A DNA stretch of 63,329 bases, filler included, from 6 parts of 6 records of this genome joined end to end with filler, not necessarily neighbours in it; one strand, 5' to 3'; shown: positions 15,340 through 58,186, counted from the first letter of the whole stretch. Notes: a model not told the origin generated them from the letters alone. Numbers and translations are program-made.

Positions 15340-15439
15340 NNNNNNNNNNNNNNNNNNNNNNNNNNNNNNNNNNNNNNNNNNNNTTAATTAATTAANNNNN
15401 NNNNNNNNNNNNNNNNNNNNNNNNNNNNNNNNNNNNNNN
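15340..15439. other. Artificial contig spacer
   Basis: N44-TTAATTAATTAA-N44, stops in all six frames. Confidence 0.98.
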
Positions 15440-15577
15440 GTAAAGTTTCCGAAAGTCTTCGCCCCGACATTTCGAGGCTCATCCCGAAAACTTTTTAACC
15501 CTTTCTCGTCGGATTTTCTTAACGCGTCGTCGCGAGGCGCCCCTTTCAGAGAACAGCAAATATTATGATAGGTGAAT

Positions 15578-15637
15578 AATACTCTATTACTCTAATACGC
15601 TATTACGCCACTCCGAACCCCGATCTCCGAACTCCCT
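15578..15637. repeat. Short degenerate tandem repeats (four 8-mers then four 7-mers)
   Basis: aatactct attactct aatacgct attacgcc / actccga accccga tctccga actccct. Confidence 0.55.
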
Positions 15638-15720
15638 TACCTCTAAGGCACAGCCGCGAACACCATCGCCCATTTCCCGGTACAACAATCACATCACTTT
15701 GTGCATTATTTCGAATGATA

Positions 15721-16677
15721 TTAATCATTCCATTTAAGTTTTGAAATATAAAGACCTTTTCTTCCCCATCCGGCCCGGCTAAGATACCAGTCATCGTTTA
15801 TGTTGATCACCTCGGCGCAATGAGCTGGGAAATCTGCAATTTTATTTTTAATGTCCCAATGATAAGGTGAATTGCTTTCATATACAGCTGTATTGTCATA
15901 GGGCGCGTTTGTGCATACAAATAAGTAATATTTGTTATGTCGTTGGACAACAAACGGGGATTCGGTCGGCCCGCCATAGGTGCCGATCTTGGGATCCGTA
16001 AATACGACTTGTTTATTTGACCAGTTTATCAGATCCTGACTTTCAACAGCCATAACAACATGATTTCCCTTGTCGGCAGGTCTATTGGCCGTACAGTACA
16101 TGATCCACTTGTCTTTAAGTTGCAATATATACGGATCACGTGCATCATATCCATCTATTACCATAGGATTTGAAGAATGTCTGGTCCACTTTTTCATGTT
16201 CCTGGAAGTAGCCAGGTGAATTTTATAGCTTGTATGCGTCTCTCCCCCCGCGCAATAAAACATGTAAAATTTTCTTTTATGCTTAATGACATGCGGAGCC
16301 CAAAGATGGTATTCATTCCAGGGTTCGTTTCTGTCAACAGTTAAAGCAAAAGGTTCTTTAGACCAAGGTTGTTGTAACAGAGAATCAGCACTGGCATGTG
16401 CAAAATTGATCTCATTCAGAGGATTGGCAGGTTCTTCATGAGTGATGCCAAACATGTGCCACTTTCCTTTTTTATCTTGAATAAAACAGTGGTCATTAAT
16501 ATACCATTTTTTTTCTTCACCAATGCTTTGATCAAATATCTTAACAAACTCTCCGCATTCGATCTTATTTTTAATAAGGACGGTATTGGAATTTGTCATA
16601 ATATTTTCACTATTAGCTTCTTGGGAAAAGGCTAAAGTAGATATTATGCAAAGGAATACAATTGATAAAAATTTCAT
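15721..16677 (-). CDS. Secreted five-bladed beta-propeller glycoside hydrolase (GH32/GH43-like)
   Basis: Signal peptide; WYINDH, WAPHV, ARDP, TESP catalytic-type motifs. Confidence 0.8.
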   Translation of the reverse strand: MKFLSIVFLCIISTLAFSQEANSENIMTNSNTVLIKNKIECGEFVKIFDQSIGEEKKWYINDHCFIQDKKGKWHMFGITHEEPANPLNEINFAHASADSLLQQPWSKEPFALTVDRNEPWNEYHLWAPHVIKHKRKFYMFYCAGGETHTSYKIHLATSRNMKKWTRHSSNPMVIDGYDARDPYILQLKDKWIMYCTANRPADKGNHVVMAVESQDLINWSNKQVVFTDPKIGTYGGPTESPFVVQRHNKYYLFVCTNAPYDNTAVYESNSPYHWDIKNKIADFPAHCAEVININDDWYLSRAGWGRKGLYISKLKWND

Positions 16678-16710
16678 TTGATTTACTCCTTGATCATTAT
16701 TTTGTTCAAC

Positions 16711-18531
16711 TTAAGTTGATAAAACCAATCCCCATTTCCCCTCGACCTTGACCTTGTCCTCAAATCTTTTCTCCGAGATGAGATCTTTATATCTCTTTTT
16801 CCCAAGAATTGACGCATCAAATTCATAGGCATCACTGCCATTATTGATCACAACAAACACCTTCTCTCTTTTGTACTTGCGCTCAAAGATGAGGATGCCT
16901 TTTTCGTCGTCCGTGAAAATGGTTCTATAAATGCCAAGTTGCAATGCTTTGTGCTCATTGCGGATGGCGATCATTTTTTTGTAGTGGGCGAGGAGCTCTT
17001 GATTGACTTCCACTTTGTCAGGCGCATGCGTGCTGCCGTCGGCATGGTAAATTTCATCCTCATATTCGATATCATCCCAGATCATGGGTTTGCGGCAGTC
17101 GGGATCGTTGCCGCCCCACATGCCGACCTCGTCCCCGTAGTAGATCATGGGCGCGCCGGAGTAAGTCATTTGCATGATGACGAAAAGTTTTTGCAATTCA
17201 ATATCATCGGACTGCGGTTTTCTGCTCGAGTAATCGGGATTATCGATGGGTTTTGATGCCCCGAAATAGTGACCCCAGTCACGAAAATTACCAATATCGT
17301 TCTTGCGGTTCACAATATGCGAGCCGATGCGGTTGGCGTCGTGGGAACCGAAAAGATTCATCGAGACCTCCGCCACGCCCGCGGGATATAAATTTCGCAG
17401 TTCTTCCAGTTTTTTATCGTACTCGCTGGCTGTGATGCGGGACTCGCCTTCGTTAAAAAAGAACTCGGCCGAGGCAAAAGCGAAGTTGTAGTTCATTTCA
17501 CCGTCGAATTCATCGCCCTGCATGTAAAGTTTCACCTTTTCGGGCGGCTCCACGATCTCGGCGGTCAGATAAGCCTCGGGATTGATGGATCGCACATGCT
17601 TGCGCCAGTCCTTCCAGAAGGGATGCCCAATACAGAATGCCACATCCAGTCGCCAGCCGTCAATGCCATGCTCCGTTCCGGCGGCATTGGGGTTCATCCA
17701 GCGCTGGGTGGTGGCAAAAATATACTCTTTTGGGCCCTTTACAATGCCCTTTTCATCTTCTTTGAATTCCGGCAGGGTCATATGGCCGAACCAGCCTTGG
17801 TAGTCGAAACGTGTGCCTTTTTCTTCATCATCCCAGGAATGAATAATGAACCAGTCCGCGTAGGGGGAATCCTCTTGCTTCTCGATCACATCCTGAAAAG
17901 CGAAACTATTGTAGCCCAGATGATTGAAGACCCCGTCAAAAATAATACGCATATCGCGTTGGTGGACCTCGTCAATCAATTTGAGCGCCAGTTTATCGGC
18001 AGCGGTCCAGACCCATGTATCGGGATCCAGCGGATCCTCTGTCTTGATCAGTTCGCGATCGCCCTCGGGATCGGGACCGAAGGTCGGATCGATATGATGG
18101 TAGCTTTCACCATCGTACTTATGCAGGGAAGGGGAGACAAAGACCGGATTCATATAAATGGCCGTAATGCCCAGCTCCTGCAGATAGTCCAGCTTATCGA
18201 TAACCCCCTGCAGATCCCCGCCGTAACGCCGGCGCAAAAGATGCTTCCACATCTCCGGCTCGCCGTTGGCCTTTTCATAGTCCTGCAACTCGTACCAATC
18301 GCTGCCCCAGGGATGCACTCGCCATTCTTTCGGCGGATCTTGCGGATCAGCGCCGGCGATGTCTGCCACCGTGGGATCGTTACTGGGATCACCGTTGCTG
18401 AACCTTTCTGGGAATATCTGATACCATATAACTTCTTTCGACCATGATGGCACAAATTCCTTATTCTCTATATTACAGCCAAAATTAAGTATTGAGATTA
18501 AGATTAAGACAAGTAAGAATATTTTTTTCAT
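16711..18531 (-). CDS. GH13 alpha-amylase family (neopullulanase/cyclomaltodextrinase-like) lipoprotein
   Basis: YQIFPERF, GGDLQGV, DGVFNH, GWRLDVA, AEI, SHD, GAPMIYYGDE; lipobox LNFGC. Confidence 0.92.
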   Translation of the reverse strand: MKKIFLLVLILISILNFGCNIENKEFVPSWSKEVIWYQIFPERFSNGDPSNDPTVADIAGADPQDPPKEWRVHPWGSDWYELQDYEKANGEPEMWKHLLRRRYGGDLQGVIDKLDYLQELGITAIYMNPVFVSPSLHKYDGESYHHIDPTFGPDPEGDRELIKTEDPLDPDTWVWTAADKLALKLIDEVHQRDMRIIFDGVFNHLGYNSFAFQDVIEKQEDSPYADWFIIHSWDDEEKGTRFDYQGWFGHMTLPEFKEDEKGIVKGPKEYIFATTQRWMNPNAAGTEHGIDGWRLDVAFCIGHPFWKDWRKHVRSINPEAYLTAEIVEPPEKVKLYMQGDEFDGEMNYNFAFASAEFFFNEGESRITASEYDKKLEELRNLYPAGVAEVSMNLFGSHDANRIGSHIVNRKNDIGNFRDWGHYFGASKPIDNPDYSSRKPQSDDIELQKLFVIMQMTYSGAPMIYYGDEVGMWGGNDPDCRKPMIWDDIEYEDEIYHADGSTHAPDKVEVNQELLAHYKKMIAIRNEHKALQLGIYRTIFTDDEKGILIFERKYKREKVFVVINNGSDAYEFDASILGKKRYKDLISEKRFEDKVKVEGKWGLVLST

Positions 18532-18708
18532 GTTTTTGCCTTATGCAAATATCAAGTTAACAATTCTACACAAAGTGAATAATTTACCAAGATTAATAGG
18601 TGCAAGAAATGATAAATATTGAGAGAATTAACATGATATATTTAATTGTTATTTATGGTGGTTGTGTTGAAAACAATTATTTAAATTAGCTAAAATACAA
18701 ATTATATC

Positions 18709-19785
18709 TTAGTCATTATCAGGATGATAAAAGATTAAATTTCCATCGCTTTTTAATTCATCTATAACTTTAGAATCAATCGATTCTCCATTTTCATCAA
18801 TATTTGGGATTAAAAATGAAATATTTGAATTATCATCACTTGGAGTAAAATTATGCCCAATTGAACTTCCATTATTCCAAAAGTCAACTGGAGTCTGAAT
18901 TGAATATATGAAATCTAAAGATTTCCCAATTATGGTTACATATTTATTGTTTTTGATTATTTTGTTTTGTGGGGCTTTAAAACACAAACAATTTTCTGGA
19001 AAGTCATCTTTAATTGGGTTAAAGGTTTTTCCTATATAATTTGATTTTAGCTTTTCTTTGATTTGTATTGTCAGAAAATCTAATAGCTTCTTTTTAATAA
19101 TATAATTAGATGAACATTTTTTCCCCGTAAGTGATAATCCATTGTGAAAATCCCTTGTTGGGTAAAGATCCGGTGGAGGAATGATAAAATCATTTTGTAA
19201 TATATTTTGAACATTTTCATTTGAATGTTCTGTATGAAAGGACTTATCATTTGTGAGTAATATTGTATTTTCAGTTTTTCCGGGCTGAGGAAAAGCAGCT
19301 GAAACAAGTACTAGTGCATCATGATTTGTAATTTTAGATGATAAACATACGTCTATTGAAGGTTTAATTTGATCTTCATGTAAAACACTAAATTCAAAAT
19401 CAATTCCATAATTATTTGAAATAGTTTTGATTTCTTTTTCAACTTCTTTTTTAATATTTGGTATTTCATCCTCAAAAATAGCCTTCGGATGCTCAAATTC
19501 TTTATTATATTTTAAAAGAGAAGAATAGTTTATATTACCACGTGAGGAATCATGTGAGTTTTTTACTGCGATACGCATATAATGTTCACGTTTTCTTACT
19601 TCAGCAAATTCAAATATCACATACCTTGAGCTTACAAGTCTTGTAAATGGAATTTTATTTAATAATCCAACGAAATAATTAAGGCTTTTATAAGTTTTAT
19701 CAACTAAATAAACCAATAAATTAGTATCAAAAAATATTTTAATACTAAAATCCTCATGAACTGGATTATCACTCCAATCTTTCAT
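18709..19785 (-). CDS. PIN domain-containing nuclease with additional C-terminal domain
   Basis: IFFDTNLL, VIFEF, HDALVL, LLTNDKSF supply the acidic PIN quartet; 358 aa, about 150 aa extra C-terminal region. Confidence 0.8.
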   Translation of the reverse strand: MKDWSDNPVHEDFSIKIFFDTNLLVYLVDKTYKSLNYFVGLLNKIPFTRLVSSRYVIFEFAEVRKREHYMRIAVKNSHDSSRGNINYSSLLKYNKEFEHPKAIFEDEIPNIKKEVEKEIKTISNNYGIDFEFSVLHEDQIKPSIDVCLSSKITNHDALVLVSAAFPQPGKTENTILLTNDKSFHTEHSNENVQNILQNDFIIPPPDLYPTRDFHNGLSLTGKKCSSNYIIKKKLLDFLTIQIKEKLKSNYIGKTFNPIKDDFPENCLCFKAPQNKIIKNNKYVTIIGKSLDFIYSIQTPVDFWNNGSSIGHNFTPSDDNSNISFLIPNIDENGESIDSKVIDELKSDGNLIFYHPDND

Positions 19786-19787
19786 TT

Positions 19788-21041
19788 TTAGAATATATCT
19801 CTCATATAGTGTTTGGCTACAAAGGCATCATCAATAATAATATTAGCAGAATCTTCTGATGCTTTTTCAATTAAATAATAACAATTTTTAAGAAACCGAC
19901 GTGGATTACCTTCAACTAGTTCATTTAGTTTTTCAATTCCCTCATTGTTAAATGGGGATATGTTGTTTAAAGCTTTATCTCGAGCCACATTTAAGTGATT
20001 TAATGCAATTTGTTTTGCTTCATCGAGGTTAAGGTTGTTTAACATAATTTGTCTTGAAGTAATTCTATCAGCCAAGGGGGGAGAAACACTTCTTAATTTT
20101 CTCAACGCTTGACCAGTCATAGCAAATAATAAACACCATGATCTATGTTTATCAAGTAAGGTTCGTAAATTATAAACATAATTATCAACTTGTGTCTTTG
20201 TCAACCTACCTTCGGTAATATCTTCGAATTCATCAACTAAAATAAAAAAATCAGTATAACCCTGTTCTTTGATAAGCTTTACAATATACTTGATTATTTC
20301 AGCCTCCTTATTGTGAAGCTGTTTAATACTTCCAGTAGATAGGGCTTCCCATGTTTTATTAACACCATAATCTTCAGCAATTAAAAGATAGAAATATTGT
20401 GCTAAAATTGAACTCCCCACTTCAAGTTCAAGTATTTCAGTAATAATTTCTTTAAAAATTATATCAAATTCTTTTCGTTGTCTTGGAACACTAAAGTATC
20501 TGACGAATGAATTGAGGAATTTTTTATATGATGTTGAGTTTTCTTCGGAATATGGATCAGGATTGACATCTTCAAATAACTGAGTAGTACTACTTTGAAA
20601 TTTTTTTAGTTTATGTTTATAATTTTGACTCTTATTTATAGTATTTATAATTTTTGTCCAAATAAATTTCTTAAAAGTTTCCTCGCCAATTTTTGATATT
20701 ATAGCACCAATAAATTCTAAAAGTTTAACACCGGGGTTATCTATATATATTACATACGGGTTTTTATTATTTTTATGTCTTGATGATATATCACCTAAAA
20801 GGTATTTTGTATACATTAAAAGTTGTGTTTTTCCAGAACCATAATCACCAGTTATAGTTGCTGAAATAAACTTGTCTTCGGGATCAATTTCATTATCTTT
20901 TAAAGCACTTTCTATAAAGTCAACAATTTGTTTATGAGTATTTTTATCAACAGGTATTAGTTGTTTGTTATATAAATCACTTCCATTAATATTAGATGTG
21001 CCTGATCTGGGGAATGGATTAAACTTTAGGTTAGGGTTCAT
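19788..21041 (-). CDS. AAA+ P-loop ATPase (BrxC/BrxD- or ORC/Cdc6-like architecture)
   Basis: Walker A GDYGSGKT, Walker B FFILVDEFE, sensor 1 LLFAMT, Arg finger LADRI, sensor 2 GNPRRFL; AGGAGG RBS. Confidence 0.85.
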   Translation of the reverse strand: MNPNLKFNPFPRSGTSNINGSDLYNKQLIPVDKNTHKQIVDFIESALKDNEIDPEDKFISATITGDYGSGKTQLLMYTKYLLGDISSRHKNNKNPYVIYIDNPGVKLLEFIGAIISKIGEETFKKFIWTKIINTINKSQNYKHKLKKFQSSTTQLFEDVNPDPYSEENSTSYKKFLNSFVRYFSVPRQRKEFDIIFKEIITEILELEVGSSILAQYFYLLIAEDYGVNKTWEALSTGSIKQLHNKEAEIIKYIVKLIKEQGYTDFFILVDEFEDITEGRLTKTQVDNYVYNLRTLLDKHRSWCLLFAMTGQALRKLRSVSPPLADRITSRQIMLNNLNLDEAKQIALNHLNVARDKALNNISPFNNEGIEKLNELVEGNPRRFLKNCYYLIEKASEDSANIIIDDAFVAKHYMRDIF

Positions 21042-21077
21042 ATATTTCCTCCTATATTGATTCAGACTGTTATTAGG

Positions 21078-22085
21078 CTATTTACTTCTTACAATTATAT
21101 GCGAAATATAAGAATCATTGTGTTTAATGAAAAACAATTTATCTGTATTTATACTTCCTTTATTAATAAATATTTCTGAAGTTCTTTCAAAACTAAATAT
21201 ATCCTTATGCTGAATGTACTGGTTGAGTATATATTGTTTGATATCAAAAATGCTCTTTCGATATGATATAGCAAGTTTAAATACCAGATCAGGAATGTAA
21301 ACGTAATTATCACTAAAATTATTTATAATGAATTCAACAAGATTAGTGTTTATTTTATTTTGACTAATTACATATGAGCATGAAATATTATTATTGTCAA
21401 TTTTTATATCTATATTCCGAAGGCTAAATTTCTCTATGATTTCTAAAGTTGTCCCCCATTTTAAGAACATATCCCAAAATCGCATTATATCACCATTGTT
21501 ATTGCATATTTGATATATGTCAGGGTTGTTTTTTAGCTCATAAAAAAAACAGTTATTAAATCTACTATTATTCGAGTAATGATAGAGAGGAGATGATTTT
21601 TCAATTAATGATTTTAAATTATCGTTTAACATAAAATTATTAAAATGACTGTTGTCTTTTAACAAGTACCAGCTTAACATTTCTTTAAACCTAAAATATG
21701 TTAAAAATATTTTTTTAAAATCTAGCAGATCATTTGATGATAAATCTGAGCCAATCATTGAATTTTTAAATAGATTATTCAATATTTTTCCAGAAGGTTC
21801 AATCAAAGAAAAATTAATTAATGCATTTATATGTTCAAGTAATCTTCTTTTTGTCCATTTAGTATTTTTATACGGGAGATTGTTTTTTTTACAGAAAGCA
21901 AAAAACTCTTTAAATATAAATTCTTTATTCCAGTTTCTAAGTGCTATAAATACATCTCGAATTTCAGTTAAATTATAAACTGATGATAGACTCCAACCTT
22001 TACCAAATTCGTTTATATATTCATCTGAACTTAAATAAGGTAGTTTTTTATTCTTTGAACTGTTGGTTGATATCAATTTACTCAT
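21078..22085 (-). CDS. Hypothetical protein, possibly tandem winged-helix DNA-binding
   Basis: 335-codon ORF in AT-rich DNA, ATGA-coupled to the MTase; wHTH-like segments RRLLEHINALINFSLIE and FLKWGTTLEIIE. Confidence 0.7.
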   Translation of the reverse strand: MSKLISTNSSKNKKLPYLSSDEYINEFGKGWSLSSVYNLTEIRDVFIALRNWNKEFIFKEFFAFCKKNNLPYKNTKWTKRRLLEHINALINFSLIEPSGKILNNLFKNSMIGSDLSSNDLLDFKKIFLTYFRFKEMLSWYLLKDNSHFNNFMLNDNLKSLIEKSSPLYHYSNNSRFNNCFFYELKNNPDIYQICNNNGDIMRFWDMFLKWGTTLEIIEKFSLRNIDIKIDNNNISCSYVISQNKINTNLVEFIINNFSDNYVYIPDLVFKLAISYRKSIFDIKQYILNQYIQHKDIFSFERTSEIFINKGSINTDKLFFIKHNDSYISHIIVRSK

Positions 22086-23350
22086 TCTAGTATTAGCACA
22101 TTCTCTGTTAATTCTACATTATGTCTATATGTTAAATTTTTCCACTTTTTGCCTCTAGAGCGAAGCGTATGGATTTTATAAGATTGAAAACCACAATTGA
22201 GTCCAATTTCACCGAGCAATTCAGTCGTGGGAATATAAACACCATATGGTGCTGAATCACCCAGTATTAAATATGATTTGCCATGAGGTTTAATTGCTCG
22301 TTTAATCTCTTTTAAAACGTAGAACATATCTTGAAAATATAATAGCATAAGTATATCAAAGCTTTTTTTCCCTTTGCGAGTATTGGCAGTTAATTTTATT
22401 TGATTCGATAGATTAATTAGGTTTTGTGAAATATTTTTATTAGTTCTGATAAACTCAGAAGATATGAAATCATCCAAATTGAATTCAGATTTTGCATAAT
22501 GAGTTGTTGATCCTGTGACCAATTTCTTTCTAATGTTTTTTGTAATATCATTCCAACTATTTGTTGTTTGAAAGAAGTGTGTATGAACTTTTGATACTTC
22601 TCCATAATCAAGATTATTAAGATAGGGTGGCGAAGTAATACAAATATCACAGGAATTTTCTTTAATTTTTTTATTTATTGTTCTGGAATCGTGTAAATAT
22701 ATTTTTGAGGTAGTTTTATTGCTATGTGTATTTATTATATCTGTTAGCATTTGATTACATAAACTATTAAATATTTTCCATGCAGATAGTTCATTCGTCT
22801 TTATTTTATTACGGACTATATATGGTGCTGCTATAGGGTGTATTGATGTTTTATGAAGTGTTTGGCTTAAAGCTAGTTTAAAGAATAAATAGTATTTATT
22901 GTCAGTAATAAATTCTAGACTATTTCTGATGAGATATAATGTTTTCAAGTCATCTTGATTATATAATGAGAGTAGTAAAGGATGAGCTTCATCTAACACA
23001 TTATATGATCTTTCATTTTTAATAATAAAGTTGTTTATAATTTCACTATTCGCATTGAAATTTGAAATATCAATATCCCAGTTAAGCTTAGCTTGAATTA
23101 TATCAAACATAAATGATTGACTTTCATTTCCGACAGCATTAACTCCTGCTTTTTGAGAAGATACAAGCGTAGTTCCACAACCAGCAAATGGATCGAAAAT
23201 TGATGAATTGCTTTTATTATCAAGTTTTTCAAATTTTATTACTTCTTCAACGAATTTGTATGAAAAACCAGCAATAAATTTATACCAATTATGAATAGGA
23301 CTTTTTAAATTATCTTTTGCTGACCCAATTTCTGAATGTAAAAAAATCAT
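22082..23350 (-). CDS. Site-specific DNA methyltransferase, probably N4-cytosine, alpha-class motif order
   Basis: HNWYKFIAGFS, motif I FDPFAGCGTT preceding motif IV ITSPPY, ILGDSAPYG. Confidence 0.9.
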   Translation of the reverse strand: MIFLHSEIGSAKDNLKSPIHNWYKFIAGFSYKFVEEVIKFEKLDNKSNSSIFDPFAGCGTTLVSSQKAGVNAVGNESQSFMFDIIQAKLNWDIDISNFNANSEIINNFIIKNERSYNVLDEAHPLLLSLYNQDDLKTLYLIRNSLEFITDNKYYLFFKLALSQTLHKTSIHPIAAPYIVRNKIKTNELSAWKIFNSLCNQMLTDIINTHSNKTTSKIYLHDSRTINKKIKENSCDICITSPPYLNNLDYGEVSKVHTHFFQTTNSWNDITKNIRKKLVTGSTTHYAKSEFNLDDFISSEFIRTNKNISQNLINLSNQIKLTANTRKGKKSFDILMLLYFQDMFYVLKEIKRAIKPHGKSYLILGDSAPYGVYIPTTELLGEIGLNCGFQSYKIHTLRSRGKKWKNLTYRHNVELTENVLILE

Positions 23351-23562
23351 TTTACTAGCTTTGTAGGATTTAATAAATTTTGAACATTTACATCTAAAAG
23401 TTCAGAAATATTAATTAGAGTTTCAAGTGACGGTTGAATTTCATTTGTACACCATCTTGAGACAGTGACAGAATTTTTCCCCATTTTTTCTGCCAACCAT
23501 TTATTTGTTTTCCCTTGTTCGACAAGTACTACTTTAATTCTATTAATCGTTTTTTTTCTCAT
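23347..23562 (-). CDS. XRE-family helix-turn-helix regulator (controller-protein-like)
   Basis: 71 aa; NRIKVVL..QGKTNKWLAEKMGKNSVTVSRWCTNEIQPSLETL; ATGA overlap with the MTase. Confidence 0.9.
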   Translation of the reverse strand: MRKKTINRIKVVLVEQGKTNKWLAEKMGKNSVTVSRWCTNEIQPSLETLINISELLDVNVQNLLNPTKLVK

Positions 23563-23604
23563 GATTTATCAGGTTTTAATTAATATATCAAATAATAACA
23601 CTCA

Positions 23605-23666
23605 ATTATGAAATTTGCAATAAAGAGTTTGTCAAAATATCATCAAATATTAGCATTATATGCTAA
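23605..23666 (-). promoter_or_regulatory. Putative promoter and palindromic operator of the island operon
   Basis: TTAGCAT-TAT-ATGCTAA (23650-23666); minus-strand TTGACA (23635-23630) and CATAAT (23610-23605), 19-bp spacer. Confidence 0.5.
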
Positions 23667-23740
23667 ATAATTATACTATAATATTATTTAATTAATTGAA
23701 AATGTATATCATATTATGGGTGTATTAAAGTAAGAGGGAT

Positions 23741-24907
23741 TTATTTTCGTCTATGTGAAATGTATTCTACCAGAAAAACCAAAGCCCCCATAAAACTTAA
23801 GCCACTCGCAAGATAAATCGCAGATGCAAAGCTTCCTGATATATCAAAAAGATGCCCGCCGCTCATGGGACCGGCGATGCCGGCAATGGCGTAGCCGAGG
23901 AAGACGAAGGGATAGATCAGGCCAAGATTCTTGACGCCGAAAAGTTCGGCGGTTTCTTTGGCGAAGAGGACGAAGTTGCCGCCGAAGCCGAAGCCGATGA
24001 AGAAGACGAGGATAAGGAAGCTTACCGCCGTGAGAGGGATGATATTCAGCAGAATGAGCGCCAGAGCTTGTAAGAAGAGTGCCAGAAAGATGCTGATGCT
24101 GGCGCCGATGTGGTCGCTGCAGTAACCCCAGACCAGGCGACCCAGGAAGTTGGCGACGGCATAGAGCGATATACTGACAACCAGATGCCGGGCTTCAATG
24201 CCGCTCTGCTGACCGATGATCTTCAGGCTGCCGATGACCATCAGTCCGGCAAAGGTCCCCAAGAATATCCCGATGAATAATTTCCTGAAAATGGGCGTGT
24301 GGATCAGTTTACTTGTTTTAACGCGCTCGGCATTGATATCATGTTCGGGTTCGGGCGCATGATGCACCATGTTGGAGAAAAAGATAATGATGGCGCCATA
24401 GGTGAGTCCAATGAATTTTAAGAGTTGCATCACATCATTGCCGCTGCCGAGAATGCGCTGGGAAATGGCGGTCATGAAAATGGCACCCAGTCCAAATCCC
24501 GCCGCGGAGATCCCGGTGATCAGTCCCTTGCGGTTCGGGAACCACTGTACCGGAGCCGTCAGGGCCAGCCAATAACCGAAACCCGTGGCGATACCCGCCA
24601 GCACACCGATACCCAATAAAATGATAGAGAAATTCCCCTGCGATTGTCCCGCAATGAAATATCCCGCAAAAAAGAAGAGTCCGGAAATGTAGCCCAGCGT
24701 CCGGTACTTAACGTCCTGAGAAATGCGTCCCACAAAGATCATGGTCACGGGAAAGATGGCGATAATGGCCGCAAAGATCACCTGGGACTGAAAGGCCGTA
24801 AAGCCGTAGCAGCACATTAGTTCAGAAGCGATAATACTCCAGGCATATACGCTGCCCGTGCAGAGCATGATGATGAAGGAGGCTATGACGGTGGTGTATT
24901 TTTTCAT
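23741..24907 (-). CDS. MFS transporter, oxalate/formate antiporter (OFA)-like
   Basis: GSVYAWS, WFPNRKGLITG..AAGFGLG, GRLVWG..SDHIG; about 12 TM segments. Confidence 0.85.
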   Translation of the reverse strand: MKKYTTVIASFIIMLCTGSVYAWSIIASELMCCYGFTAFQSQVIFAAIIAIFPVTMIFVGRISQDVKYRTLGYISGLFFFAGYFIAGQSQGNFSIILLGIGVLAGIATGFGYWLALTAPVQWFPNRKGLITGISAAGFGLGAIFMTAISQRILGSGNDVMQLLKFIGLTYGAIIIFFSNMVHHAPEPEHDINAERVKTSKLIHTPIFRKLFIGIFLGTFAGLMVIGSLKIIGQQSGIEARHLVVSISLYAVANFLGRLVWGYCSDHIGASISIFLALFLQALALILLNIIPLTAVSFLILVFFIGFGFGGNFVLFAKETAELFGVKNLGLIYPFVFLGYAIAGIAGPMSGGHLFDISGSFASAIYLASGLSFMGALVFLVEYISHRRK

Positions 24908-25006
24908 GGGATTTCCCTGTGTTTATGAAATTTAGGGAAAATATTGTGATATGCAAAAAATATCTGGGATATGGATACAGTGTAAATCTCTTGAGTAGAT
25001 GTAAAT

Positions 25007-25028
25007 GTAGGGGCGACACTTGGGTCGC
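25007..25028 (+). repeat. GTAG-type REP-like palindrome (truncated at contig end)
   Basis: GTAGGGGCGAC-ACTTGG-GTCGC: GTAG foot followed by GCGAC/GTCGC stem. Confidence 0.6.
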
Positions 25029-25128
25029 NNNNNNNNNNNNNNNNNNNNNNNNNNNNNNNNNNNNNNNNNNNNTTAATTAATTAANNNNNNNNNNNNNNNN
25101 NNNNNNNNNNNNNNNNNNNNNNNNNNNN
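25029..25128. other. Artificial contig spacer
   Basis: N44-TTAATTAATTAA-N44. Confidence 0.98.
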
Positions 25129-25196
25129 CCTTTATGAAAGACTGGAAAGCATTAAACAGAGTAATACCCAATGAAACAGGCCTGATAGGACAGAAG

Positions 25197-26663
25197 ATGG
25201 AACTTAAGGTTGAAGTTTTAACTTACAAGGGGCGTCCCCCGCTGAAGCAATTGTCCGTTTCGTTTCAAAAAGAAAAAGGAACGATCGGGCGTTCACCGGA
25301 CAATGATTTGCATCTGACGGATCCTGACCTGATTATTTCCTCAAAGCATGCAAGTATCCTGTTTGAAGGCAACTCATTCCATATCCAAGACCACAGCACA
25401 AACGGAACAGTTCTCTCAACAGCAGGCCTTGAACTGCATGGTAACCGTCATCGCCTGAAAGACGGTGATGAGCTTGAAATCGGTGAATACCGCTTGAAAA
25501 TTAATATCGATGATGGTTATGATCAGCAGGTCTACAGCCCGCAATCGTCTCTTTTTGAGATTGATCAGGGAGATGTACAGGACCCAGTCACCACAGAATT
25601 TCCCGATTCGTCATCTTTGCCTTCTCCTTCCGGGCAACCCAATGAAGTAAAACCGCCCGAGGTATTTGATTCCCATATGACAACAGTGGATCATTATGAT
25701 CCCCCATCCGTTGAATCCCCCTCTGCACAGCAAACGTTTTTTGACCACACCCCCCCGTCATCACAGATACCCCCCGAAGATTTCAACCCGGCAGATCTTC
25801 TATCCTCGCTGGGTGGACAAAATATGACGGATCAAAACAGTGAGCCGGTTATCCCACCGATAACACAAGTGGAACACAGCCCTGCCCAGGACGCTGATTC
25901 TTCCAATTTTGATTCGTCAGAATTTGAATCGTCAATTGAAAACATTAAAAATCCTTCTCATCTGTCCCGGGAACAGTCACCACCCCCCCGGGAAGTCAGG
26001 GCTGAAAGATCTGATCCACAAAGCCACAATCATGAATCATTGCAAAACGATTATACAAAAAATATCACAGAACCCCGGTCTGAACCCGCAACCAGCACTC
26101 CGGACCTGGCCCAGGTTCTTCTGGAATCTTTGGGGATCATCGATGGGAAACACATCCCTTCTGAAGAAATGCCTGAATTCATTCAAACGGTGGGGTCCGT
26201 TTTCAGGGAGCTGATAGAGGGTCTGCGAACAGTTTTGCGGGCACGTGCGGAAAGCAAAGCGCAGATTACCGGCATTATGATGACCATGGTGGAAATAGAG
26301 AGAAATAACCCCCTTAAATTTTCTCCTACTGTGGAGGATGCCATCAAGCTGTTGTTGCTGGACAGGAAATCAGGTTTTCTGGATCCTGTCTCGTCGATTC
26401 GTGATGGTTATGAAGATGTGAAAAATCATCAACTGGCGGTGAGTGCCGGTGTACAGGCAACCTTGCAAAAATTGCTCAACTATCTGGACCCCCAAAATTT
26501 TGAAAAAAAAGGAATTATGGGAAAAGCCCACAGCTGGGAGGCGTATACAAAGGCATACAATGACCTTGTCAAGGAAACGCCTAAAACATTTTTTGATCAG
26601 GAATTTGCCAAAGCGTATCTTGAATTTATGTCGAAAATAAATGATGCGAAAAGGAAAAGCTGA
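25197..26663 (+). CDS. tagH: T6SS-associated FHA domain protein TagH/Fha
   Basis: FHA motifs IGRS, ISSKHA, DHSTNGT, LKDGDELEIGEY; Pro/Ser-rich linker; NNPLKF and HQLAV C-domain; start may be 25134 or 25197. Confidence 0.9.
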   Translation: MELKVEVLTYKGRPPLKQLSVSFQKEKGTIGRSPDNDLHLTDPDLIISSKHASILFEGNSFHIQDHSTNGTVLSTAGLELHGNRHRLKDGDELEIGEYRLKINIDDGYDQQVYSPQSSLFEIDQGDVQDPVTTEFPDSSSLPSPSGQPNEVKPPEVFDSHMTTVDHYDPPSVESPSAQQTFFDHTPPSSQIPPEDFNPADLLSSLGGQNMTDQNSEPVIPPITQVEHSPAQDADSSNFDSSEFESSIENIKNPSHLSREQSPPPREVRAERSDPQSHNHESLQNDYTKNITEPRSEPATSTPDLAQVLLESLGIIDGKHIPSEEMPEFIQTVGSVFRELIEGLRTVLRARAESKAQITGIMMTMVEIERNNPLKFSPTVEDAIKLLLLDRKSGFLDPVSSIRDGYEDVKNHQLAVSAGVQATLQKLLNYLDPQNFEKKGIMGKAHSWEAYTKAYNDLVKETPKTFFDQEFAKAYLEFMSKINDAKRKS

Positions 26664-26696
26664 ACTGCCGTTTAAAACAGGAGAATCTGATATATT

Positions 26697-28034
26697 ATGA
26701 ATTGCAGAAAGGTCGTTTGGTTGGAAGGTATGCCCTTGTGTGCCCAGCATTTTCAGCAGCATGACCGTTTTCTTGAAAATCTGATTAATAGCCGGTTTTT
26801 AGGCATACAGCCGTTTAACTGGGGGTTTGAGAACCTGGTCATTGACACCGAACTTTTGGGGATTGGAAAACTGGGTCTCAAAAAATGTTCAGGTATTTTC
26901 CAGGACGGTACGCCTTTTTATTTTCCCGGAGACGAAGAATTGCCCTTGCCTGTGGAAATTCCTGAAGATATCAGCAATGAAATCATTTACCTTGCATTGC
27001 CGGTAAGACGGCCTGACGGTATAGAAACGGACAGTGATGAAAATCCGGAAAGCCTGGCCCGGTACCGGATAAGCGAACGGGATGTGAAAAATAATATTAC
27101 ATTGGGTGGGGACGGCAGGGTCCCTTTATATACCGGCGGATTAAAAACCCGTCTACTTATGGAACGCGATGAACGGTCCGGGTATACATGTATAGGCGTT
27201 GCCAGGATCATTGAGGCCCGGGCGGATAAAAATGTACTGCTGGACGAAAACTATATTCCGTCCAATGTGAATTGTGTTACGACAAAAAGCCTCAAGGGAT
27301 ACATCCTTGAACTGATCGGGCTGCTCAACATCCGTGGCGAGGCAATTGCTGCCCGGATGGGTGGTGAAGACCAAGGTGGGGTTGCCGGAATTTCCGATTT
27401 TTTATTGCTTCAGACAGTCAACCGGTATCAGCAGCTGTTTAAACATTTATCAGCGCTTCCTGAGCTGCATCCGGAACGATTTTATCAGTTTATCATCCAA
27501 TTGTCAGGTGAACTGGTGACGTTTTTTTCCAAAAAAAGACGTCCAAAAGAGTATCCTCCCTATCGCCACAACGACCTTCAGCAGACCTTCTCCCCTGTGA
27601 TGGAAGATCTCAGGCAGTTGTTGGCCAAAGTGTACGAACAAAGAGCGGTACCCATAAAACTCACAGACCCGAAATACAATACATATGCCGCGCGCAGGCC
27701 GGATCCGGGCCTGCTTCAGAGTGCGGTTTTCGTGCTGGCGGCCAAAGCCCGGGTGGATAACAAATCCCTTCAGGAAAATTTACCGAACCAGACCATCATT
27801 GCCCCGGTTGAAACAATCAATGAATACATCAAGTCCCTTACACCCGGCATTGATATTCACCATCTTTCGGTGGTACCCCAAGAACTGCCGTACCACCCTG
27901 GATTTATCTATTTCGAACTAAACACCCAATGTGATTTATGGGATAAAATAATAACATCTGCCGGCATTGCCATTCATATTTCCAGCAATCTTCCCGAACT
28001 TCAGCTGGAGTTTTGGGCGATTAAAAAAGGTTAA
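26697..28034 (+). CDS. tssK: T6SS baseplate subunit TssK
   Basis: KVVWLEGM...QHFQQHDR, GIFQDGTPF, HPERFY, LEFWAI. Confidence 0.95.
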   Translation: MNCRKVVWLEGMPLCAQHFQQHDRFLENLINSRFLGIQPFNWGFENLVIDTELLGIGKLGLKKCSGIFQDGTPFYFPGDEELPLPVEIPEDISNEIIYLALPVRRPDGIETDSDENPESLARYRISERDVKNNITLGGDGRVPLYTGGLKTRLLMERDERSGYTCIGVARIIEARADKNVLLDENYIPSNVNCVTTKSLKGYILELIGLLNIRGEAIAARMGGEDQGGVAGISDFLLLQTVNRYQQLFKHLSALPELHPERFYQFIIQLSGELVTFFSKKRRPKEYPPYRHNDLQQTFSPVMEDLRQLLAKVYEQRAVPIKLTDPKYNTYAARRPDPGLLQSAVFVLAAKARVDNKSLQENLPNQTIIAPVETINEYIKSLTPGIDIHHLSVVPQELPYHPGFIYFELNTQCDLWDKIITSAGIAIHISSNLPELQLEFWAIKKG

Positions 28035-34654: not shown

Positions 34655-34754
34655 NNNNNNNNNNNNNNNNNNNNNNNNNNNNNNNNNNNNNNNNNNNNTT
34701 AATTAATTAANNNNNNNNNNNNNNNNNNNNNNNNNNNNNNNNNNNNNNNNNNNN
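34655..34754. other. Artificial contig spacer
   Basis: N44-TTAATTAATTAA-N44. Confidence 0.98.
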
Positions 34755-52824: not shown

Positions 52825-52924
52825 NNNNNNNNNNNNNNNNNNNNNNNNNNNNNNNNNNNNNNNNNNNNTTAATTAATTAANNNNNNNNNNNNNNNNNNNN
52901 NNNNNNNNNNNNNNNNNNNNNNNN
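52825..52924. other. Artificial contig spacer
   Basis: N44-TTAATTAATTAA-N44. Confidence 0.98.
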
Positions 52925-58086: not shown

Positions 58087-58186
58087 NNNNNNNNNNNNNN
58101 NNNNNNNNNNNNNNNNNNNNNNNNNNNNNNTTAATTAATTAANNNNNNNNNNNNNNNNNNNNNNNNNNNNNNNNNNNNNNNNNNNN
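58087..58186. other. Artificial contig spacer
   Basis: N44-TTAATTAATTAA-N44. Confidence 0.98.

Follow-up and report, generated by a model that had tools for sequence, protein, structure and literature searches.

The window analysed here, a stretch of 63,329 nucleotides made up of joined contig pieces, contains five adjacent genes on its minus strand (18709-23562), four of which code for a DNA amino-methyltransferase (MTase), a protein of no recognised family (orf3), a small ORC/Cdc6-type AAA+ ATPase and a predicted PIN-domain nuclease. These four genes are one conserved, horizontally mobile unit, which we call the cassette; it has a defined gene content, retains the catalytic motifs of its enzymes, is strictly co-inherited with a methylase and moves between genomes. 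In our estimation the chances are evenly balanced that it is a compact, mobile defence system that marks self by methylation, with these four as its core genes and the PIN protein as an effector gated by the ATPase. This reading draws its support from the strict co-inheritance of the genes, the fact that a methylase is never missing, the way in which copies decay, the mobility and context of the cassette, the invariance of the catalytic residues, the precedent of the MANTIS system and the gene order of relatives in haloarchaea.

Co-inheritance of the core genes

The distribution of the cassette was determined from two anchors. A profile of the ATPase (alignment A1), searched in contigs representing one genome per species, gave 25 loci, whose gene content was established by tblastn; a profile of orf3 (alignment A2), searched in metagenomes, gave 80 contigs, for which counts are restricted to those with room for the gene in question. 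The order MTase-orf3-ATPase-PIN, in the same orientation, recurs in 24 of the 25 genome loci, including one (L012) in which the ATPase and PIN genes are frameshifted. The remaining locus, L025, is without an orthologous MTase and has instead another methylase with an SPPY motif directly upstream of orf3; some methylase is present in 25/25. Among the metagenome contigs, the MTase gene lies upstream of orf3 in 68/68 and the ATPase gene downstream of it in 69/69, while the PIN gene is present in 60/61 and all four genes together in 60/61. The exception with respect to the PIN gene, L116, has an ATPase that is truncated after 121 residues and followed by unrelated DNA. The original prediction had proposed co-occurrence of the core genes as a check, and they withstand it, with counts far beyond chance. 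Altogether the four-gene unit was found in more than 100 bacterial contigs, its cultured carriers including Polaribacter marinus, Zunongwangia pacifica, Mesonia oceanica and a Chryseobacterium sp.

The orf3-ATPase-PIN trio was seen without any methylase in no locus, whether among the 25 from genomes or the 80 from metagenomes. Both decayed copies, the frameshifted L012 and the truncated L116, have lost the ATPase/PIN side and kept MTase and orf3; these two cases are suggestive of the decay of a self-toxic restriction module shielded by its methylase.

Mobility and genomic context

The GC content of the cassette is below that of both available flanks in 21 of the 25 loci. Three loci from different genera (L016, L017 and L018) share a stretch of 17 kb with 98-100% identity (98.4-100%); either conjugative transfer in the very recent past or cross-contamination between assemblies must account for this. 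The records in question are labelled Aequorivita, Zunongwangia and Membranihabitans, and the cassette lies in them between genes for a type IV secretion system coupling protein and Tra-like proteins. Four Bacteroidales contigs from gut or rumen, whose flanks differ, have in common a 6.5-kb block comprising AbiE and the cassette, with 97-99% identity. The AbiEi/AbiEii pair stands directly upstream of the cassette at L006:109-1727, as it also does in L007, L008 and L015.

We scanned the flanks of 20 non-redundant loci (150 open reading frames (ORFs), after 5 near-duplicate loci and 5 ORFs of at least 983 aa had been dropped). The commonest families are phage-type integrases (4 ORFs), conjugative-transfer proteins, AbiE (2) and PtuA-like ATPases (2), in flanks that are otherwise mixed (187 families). 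The occurrence of the cassette is sporadic: in the family of one carrier, orf3 is present in 1 of 401 sampled genomes, which is the carrier itself. No orf3 was found in viral contigs, and the ATPase has 0 matches among the 50,697 records of a phage collection.

The four core proteins

As had been read from the sequence at the outset, the five ORFs are co-oriented and tightly coupled, with ATGA overlaps joining an XRE-family helix-turn-helix (HTH) gene to the MTase gene and the MTase gene to orf3, a 36-bp gap with an AGGAGG before the ATPase gene and a 2-bp gap before the PIN gene. The AT-rich island that they were said to occupy is equally apparent, with a GC content of 0.25-0.28 over 19001-23000 as against about 0.50 at 17001-18000 and 24001-25000. 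MTase, orf3 and the PIN protein are full length in this copy by comparison with their homologues, and the catalytic residues are invariant in the alignments of MTase, ATPase and PIN protein.

The MTase (22082-23350, minus strand; 422 aa) matches the Pfam family N6_N4_Mtase at 3.7e-8 and the PADLOC model MTase_II (PDLC03306) at 1e-53 over residues 12-412. It indeed has the FxGxG motif before SPPY, in the form of FAGCG at residue 55 and SPPY at 240; both are kept in 19/19 orthologues. The possession of motifs I and IV, here some 180 residues apart, is that of a type II amino-methyltransferase, and the SPPY tetrapeptide is typical of enzymes that form N4-methylcytosine (m4C). SPPY also occurs in the displaced methylase of L025. 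The latter (L025:3452-4843) comprises 463 aa and joins HEAT repeats, at its N-terminus, to a methylase domain of the beta class, in which SPPY precedes FxGxG. The insert region between motifs I and IV of the MTase is not hypervariable (block identities of 17-94%, mean 57%), and diversified specificity is therefore not usable as evidence.

The ATPase (19788-21041, minus strand; 417 aa) was rightly called an AAA+ protein: its Walker A (GSGKT at 68) and Walker B (LVDEFED at 268) motifs are invariant in A1, and it carries an N-terminal FNPFPRSGT motif. It matches Pfam BrxC_BrxD (PF10923) at 7.3e-8, with 32.2 bits against a cut-off of 22.2, and further AAA_22 and nSTAND1 but not DUF499. The NCBIfam equivalog model for BrxD gives 17.5 bits against a cut-off of 350, and the PADLOC matches are weak (BrxD, 4e-4; mad8, 1e-3; PDC-S52, 0.02). 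By these profile matches, the ATPase is a member of the ORC/Cdc6-type BrxC/BrxD superfamily and forms a separate family there, distinct from BrxD itself. It has 445 homologues, which are 51-74% identical among the 120 matches listed. The orf3 and ATPase ORFs overlap or abut in 24 of the 24 relatives in which both were called by the longest-ORF rule.

The system-specific protein orf3 (21078-22085, minus strand; 335 aa) matches no family in Pfam, NCBIfam or PHROGs, nor any in PADLOC (0 at E <= 1). Its relatives number 93 among 1.84 billion representatives, all of about 335 aa. The AlphaFold2 (AF2) model is confident, with a predicted local distance difference test score (pLDDT) of 93.6 and a predicted TM-score (pTM) of 0.91; a fold search with the whole model found nothing at E <= 0.001 in the PDB or BFVD. 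Profile searches of A1, A2 and the PIN alignment A3 against PDB sequences likewise gave nothing significant. The description of orf3 as wHTH-like in the original prediction is a reasonable guess, given the helix-strand topology of the model and its weak partial fold matches, and the protein might possibly be a multi-winged-helix DNA binder or a co-regulator. It has few invariant acidic residues and matches no nuclease fold, nor any nuclease family in the four collections; a novel endonuclease fold could escape such searches. Two more specific identities were considered and rejected. As a homologue of SspB/DUF4007, orf3 finds no backing in hhalign (A2 against 9 DUF4007 proteins, 2.5%; positive control, 100%), and neither the Pfam DUF4007 model nor the PADLOC Ssp models match it. 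For DpdG or a FokI recognition domain, the leads from a protein-atlas search score just 0.83, and the PADLOC Dpd models are without a match.

The PIN protein (18709-19785, minus strand; 358 aa) scores just under the Pfam cut-off (21.0 as against 23.6 bits) and matches 0 PADLOC families at E <= 1. The retention of its acidic residues holds up, with D20, E59, D156 and D180 invariant in 38 sequences. The AF2 model (pLDDT 92.5) presents a VapC-like PIN domain at about residues 1-200, followed by a beta-rich C-terminal domain at about 200-358. In Foldseek, the model matches VapC2 (3zvk_B) and PcrIIC1 (8wmm_G) with a probability of 1.00 and a target-normalised TM-score (TMt) of 0.65-0.68, and VapC toxins (3zvk, 5ed0, 5ecw, 5h4h; probability 1.00) come closest in structure to the N-terminal domain. 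EF-Tu and related translation GTPase chains also match, weakly (E 2.8e-4, TM ~0.2); we tentatively attribute these matches to the C-terminal part of the model. A protein-atlas search with the C-terminal domain gave no usable match. Of the two hallmarks of a VapBC pair, the PIN domain with four conserved acidic residues is present and the adjacent small VapB antitoxin is absent: the gene before that for the PIN protein, 2 bp off, encodes the 417-aa ATPase, and relatives likewise have the ATPase directly upstream.

Relatives of the ATPase in haloarchaea

A search of a plasmid collection with the ATPase yields 9 matching records, every one haloarchaeal; they cover 81-96% of the protein with 20-24% identity. 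Comparison of profiles (hhalign) gives a probability of 99.4% over the full length, with the N-terminal NPFP motif included. In all seven haloarchaeal plasmid loci that we examined (L026, L027 and L029-L033), a gene for a 344-aa TGT enzyme is followed by one for a hypothetical protein of about 298 aa and then by that for the ATPase, with overlapping or abutting coding ends. Four of the seven (L026, L030, L031 and L033) have a gene for QueD, QueE or a queuosine-precursor transporter in the vicinity. A second, larger TGT-type gene is found in six, being annotated as such in five and represented in L030 by a hypothetical gene of the same size and position. The PIN gene is present in 0/7. Single loci have an HNH gene (L029) or a LAGLIDADG gene (L032) downstream, or an EVE-domain gene (L030). 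DUF4007 was considered for the archaeal partner and rejected (hhalign 0.7%).

This triad resembles the cassette in having a DNA-modifying enzyme, a partner of about 300 aa and a homologous ATPase in the same order; it differs in that the modifier is a transglycosylase (a DpdA-like TGT) beside genes of the preQ0 pathway rather than a methylase, and in having no PIN protein. Its gene content suggests a module for 7-deazaguanine modification of DNA, with an ATPase of the same family. As a lead, the shared order suggests a partnership of orf3 and the ATPase with the modifying enzyme, and not only with the nuclease.

Proposed mechanism and alternatives

If the cassette is a defence system, the SPPY methyltransferase would mark host DNA as self, while orf3 and the ORC/Cdc6-type ATPase would constitute an ATP-gated module for the sensing of, or loading at, DNA sites. 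By analogy with MANTIS and BREX, such a module might serve both modification and the recognition of unmodified DNA, and might possibly load the methylase; because of the MANTIS precedent and the archaeal loci, orf3 and the ATPase may act in the modification as well as the restriction step. On engaging unmodified invader DNA, the module would license the PIN protein, which would then cut the nucleic acid of the invader. Here, the VapC-like neighbours of the PIN domain favour RNA as the target, whereas an outcome directed at DNA, as in restriction, is favoured by the obligatory methylase and by the way in which copies decay; on balance we prefer DNA. The XRE gene of the window would be a local transcriptional add-on.

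Several points weigh against this reading. Known VapC-like PIN domains are RNases, and DNA cleavage by the PIN protein is therefore not the default expectation. The fold matches of orf3 are short, winged-helix-sized and partial, with a probability of at most 0.6, and do not demonstrate a DNA-binding fold. Its homology to the archaeal partner of about 298 aa is unproven, hhalign giving 37% (E 3.6e-4) over 94 columns. By its appearance the MTase is an ordinary enzyme of type II that has an insert of its own between motifs I and IV, and hence it may not need loading. On the short contig piece of 9.6 kb that carries the cassette, no mobility or defence gene occurs among the carbohydrate and transport genes that neighbour it. 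Finally, some 28 residues present at the N-terminus of its relatives are missing from the ATPase of the window; in those relatives, the orf3 and ATPase ORFs overlap instead. Between the TAG stop of orf3 and the ATG of the ATPase lie 12 in-frame codons, PNNSLNQYRRKY (translation; 21042-21077, minus strand), which contain the AGGAGG; the TAG is in frame with the ATPase and the KY encoded in these codons matches a near-invariant Y of A1. Judging by that alignment, the codons are a remnant of a longer ancestral N-terminus, and it looks as if a small deletion created the new start with its AGGAGG. The shortened ATPase is nevertheless probably functional, since conservation within the family is lowest over the stretch that it lacks.

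An unlikely though serious alternative retains the same sensing logic but makes the PIN protein an RNase that cuts host tRNA, rRNA or mRNA, with abortive infection or dormancy as the outcome. The nearest structural neighbours of its N-terminal domain, being VapC toxins, speak for this, as do the other strong fold matches of the model, those to EF-Tu and related translation GTPases, although with their low TM-score these are weak. There are also parallels: a survey of BREX, in its available part, assigns PIN endoRNases the role of suicidal backup effectors alongside those systems (PMC12839542), and two defence systems with PIN RNases, DS-3 and DS-5, have been validated experimentally according to the accessible text of another study (PMC13092281). 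However, an abortive RNase has no obvious need for a strictly linked methylase, and, in the manner of DNA restriction systems, it is the nuclease side and not the methylase that has gone from the decayed copies. Moreover, a Cas9 complex bound to DNA includes, according to the title of entry 8wmm, the PIN-fold protein PcrIIC1, in whatever capacity. We think it improbable that the cassette has no immune role at all, and is an epigenetic or addiction module stabilising its carrier element through post-segregational killing by the PIN protein, or else a regulator of DNA transactions. It is often found on conjugative or integrative elements, the 17-kb element is identical across genera, and both PIN toxins and restriction-modification systems can act as addiction modules, as the available text of a 2017 classification of PIN domains has it (PMC5499597). 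Yet addiction and defence are compatible with each other, AbiE and PtuA-like systems adjoin the cassette in several loci, and its sporadic occurrence and usually lower GC content than the flanks are typical of defence genes; the viral contigs and phage records, in turn, lack orf3 and the ATPase, respectively.

We give very little credence to the reading as two independent systems next to each other, namely a type II restriction-modification pair with orf3 as a novel endonuclease, and a nuclease-NTPase module made up of the ATPase and the PIN protein. It would fit with restriction endonucleases often being fold orphans by sequence, with the position of orf3 directly after the MTase gene in an ATGA overlap and with nuclease-NTPase pairs being common in defence, as reported in the accessible part of a recent preprint (bioRxiv 10.1101/2025.07.10.664194). 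What tells against it is that the four genes stay together in both sets of loci, a single intact pair arising only through decay, and that the orf3 and ATPase ORFs overlap or abut throughout the relatives; the few invariant acidic residues of orf3 and its want of a match to any nuclease make an endonuclease less likely, and the haloarchaeal ATPase homologue accompanies an orf3-sized partner without the PIN protein. A methylation-based system with an ATPase-gated PIN effector remains our preferred reading. An extension of it, which we advance tentatively and with considerable doubt, is that the ORC/Cdc6-type ATPase and its fold-orphan partner of about 300 aa make up a portable reader or loader module for chemically different DNA modifications, namely that by an SPPY enzyme, probably m4C, in Bacteroidota and Acidobacteriota, and that by a TGT enzyme, 7-deazaguanine, on haloarchaeal plasmids; in bacteria it would direct the first known PIN restriction effector against unmodified DNA.

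The XRE gene and the surroundings of the cassette

The XRE-family HTH protein (23347-23562, minus strand; 71 aa; Pfam HTH_3, 3.3e-9) had been taken for the controller of the system. The comparison does not bear this out, since its homologues occur in 0 of the 25 genome loci and 1 of the 80 metagenome loci, and unrelated small HTH ORFs lie upstream of the cassette in only two of the genome loci (L014 and L023). An upstream controller gene of the kind found in C-protein-controlled restriction-modification is present in the window but not conserved among the relatives, and the XRE gene is a local accessory outside the conserved core. In the window itself, it is possibly a C-protein-like controller. 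A perfect 7-3-7 palindrome (TTAGCAT-N3-ATGCTAA, 23650-23666), about 90 bp upstream of its start, is a weak candidate for an operator, which could have arisen by chance because the DNA is AT-rich. Promoter-like sites (45 as against 39.8 +/- 7.0) and terminator-like sites (2 as against 1.5 +/- 1.3) are no better represented than in shuffled sequences. No flanking direct repeats marking an insertion site were found, and 12 short two-copy families look like chance. A 33-nt direct repeat with 85% identity, one copy in the PIN gene (19198-19230) and the other in the XRE gene (23371-23403), is probably also due to chance in AT-rich DNA.

The contig piece with the cassette extends from 15440 to 25028, between runs of N at 15340-15439 and 25029-25128. 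The flanks of about 0.50 GC carry alpha-amylase and major facilitator superfamily (MFS) transporter genes, and the neighbours on the piece as a whole are GH43, alpha-amylase and MFS genes. Paired 44-N runs at these two places and at 34655-34754, 52825-52924 and 58087-58186 divide the window into at least six joined pieces. Ahead of 15340 the GC content is about 0.58, as against some 0.46 beyond 25128; given such marked inequality, the joined pieces need not adjoin in a genome or come from a single organism. The next piece starts, at 25134-28034, with type VI secretion system (T6SS) genes unrelated to the cassette, namely for a protein with an FHA domain and T6SS_FHA_C (6e-41) and for a homologue of TssK/VasE (4e-140).

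Relationship to known systems

No type I, II or III endonuclease, HsdS, PglZ or McrC was recognised among the cassette proteins with PADLOC, Pfam, NCBIfam and PHROGs, just as the original prediction had maintained. The full-system search that it had called for found no match in PADLOC-DB v2.0.0, in which the only strong match is the generic MTase_II, and literature searches found no description of the MTase-orf3-ATPase-PIN gene set. On the strength of its sequences, the cassette is best read as an uncatalogued variant of a methylation-based, AAA+-gated putative defence system with a PIN effector. The NTP-dependent multi-subunit restriction systems of the LlaI/LlaJI and McrBC type have a methylase followed by restriction genes with a central NTPase. 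The cassette shares the layout of a methylase and then several genes around a central NTPase; unlike them, it has no detectable McrB-type GTPase or McrC-type PD-(D/E)xK nuclease, its NTPase being ORC/Cdc6-like and its nuclease a PIN protein. The latter is like VapC toxins and the Cas9 partner PcrIIC1 in its PIN fold and its four acidic residues at the active site, but differs from these in its extra C-terminal domain of 160 residues, in the lack of a VapB-type gene and in being embedded in a methylase-ATPase operon. The 2017 classification, in its accessible text, records no PIN-like nucleases in type II restriction-modification contexts and states that PIN domains had yet to be shown to act as a restriction module (PMC5499597). 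If our reading is true, a PIN domain would be the effector of a restriction-modification-like system.

With BREX, the ATPase shares its match to PF10923 and its being a stand-alone ORC/Cdc6-type AAA+ protein, as is BrxD, which the available part of the BREX survey describes as tied to BrxHI (PMC12839542). In contrast to BREX, the cassette has no PglZ, PglX, BrxC, BrxHI or PglW. That part of the survey also covers BREX-related systems centred on DUF499, as well as the PIN endoRNases in their occasional role of backup effectors, and does not describe the MTase-orf3-ATPase-PIN cassette (PMC12839542).

The closest working analogue is MANTIS (formerly Gao_RL; MtsABCD), a four-gene methylation-based system. 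According to the available text of the preprint describing it, the ORC/Cdc6-clade AAA+ ATPase MtsA and the dimeric co-regulator MtsB, which has no structural homologues, are both needed to load and activate the methylase MtsC, and site recognition by MtsABC triggers the helicase-nuclease MtsD (bioRxiv 10.64898/2026.09.23.753747). Both systems thus comprise four genes, for an ORC/Cdc6-clade AAA+ ATPase, a partner without structural homologues, a DNA methyltransferase and a nuclease. However, no cassette protein is a detectable member of a MANTIS family, and no Gao_RL/MANTIS model matches the ATPase, as its PADLOC matches are limited to BrxD, mad8 and PDC-S52; the cassette ATPase is small (417 aa) and BrxD-like. 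MANTIS hemimethylates adenine, as the accessible text has it, whereas the SPPY of the cassette suggests N4-cytosine by the usual motif rules. The MANTIS effector is a SauUSI-like helicase-nuclease, while that of the cassette would be a PIN domain with a beta-rich domain and no helicase motor, and there is no helicase gene in the cassette. Should it prove protective, the cassette would be among the smallest ATPase-gated, methylation-based immune systems, with four genes in about 4.6 kb and neither helicase nor PglZ. It would then offer a tractable model for a question shared by BREX and MANTIS, namely how an AAA+ ATPase and an orphan co-factor choose between methylation and attack. There is also a hint, from its haloarchaeal relatives, of one ATPase module being put to use in DNA modification of another chemistry.

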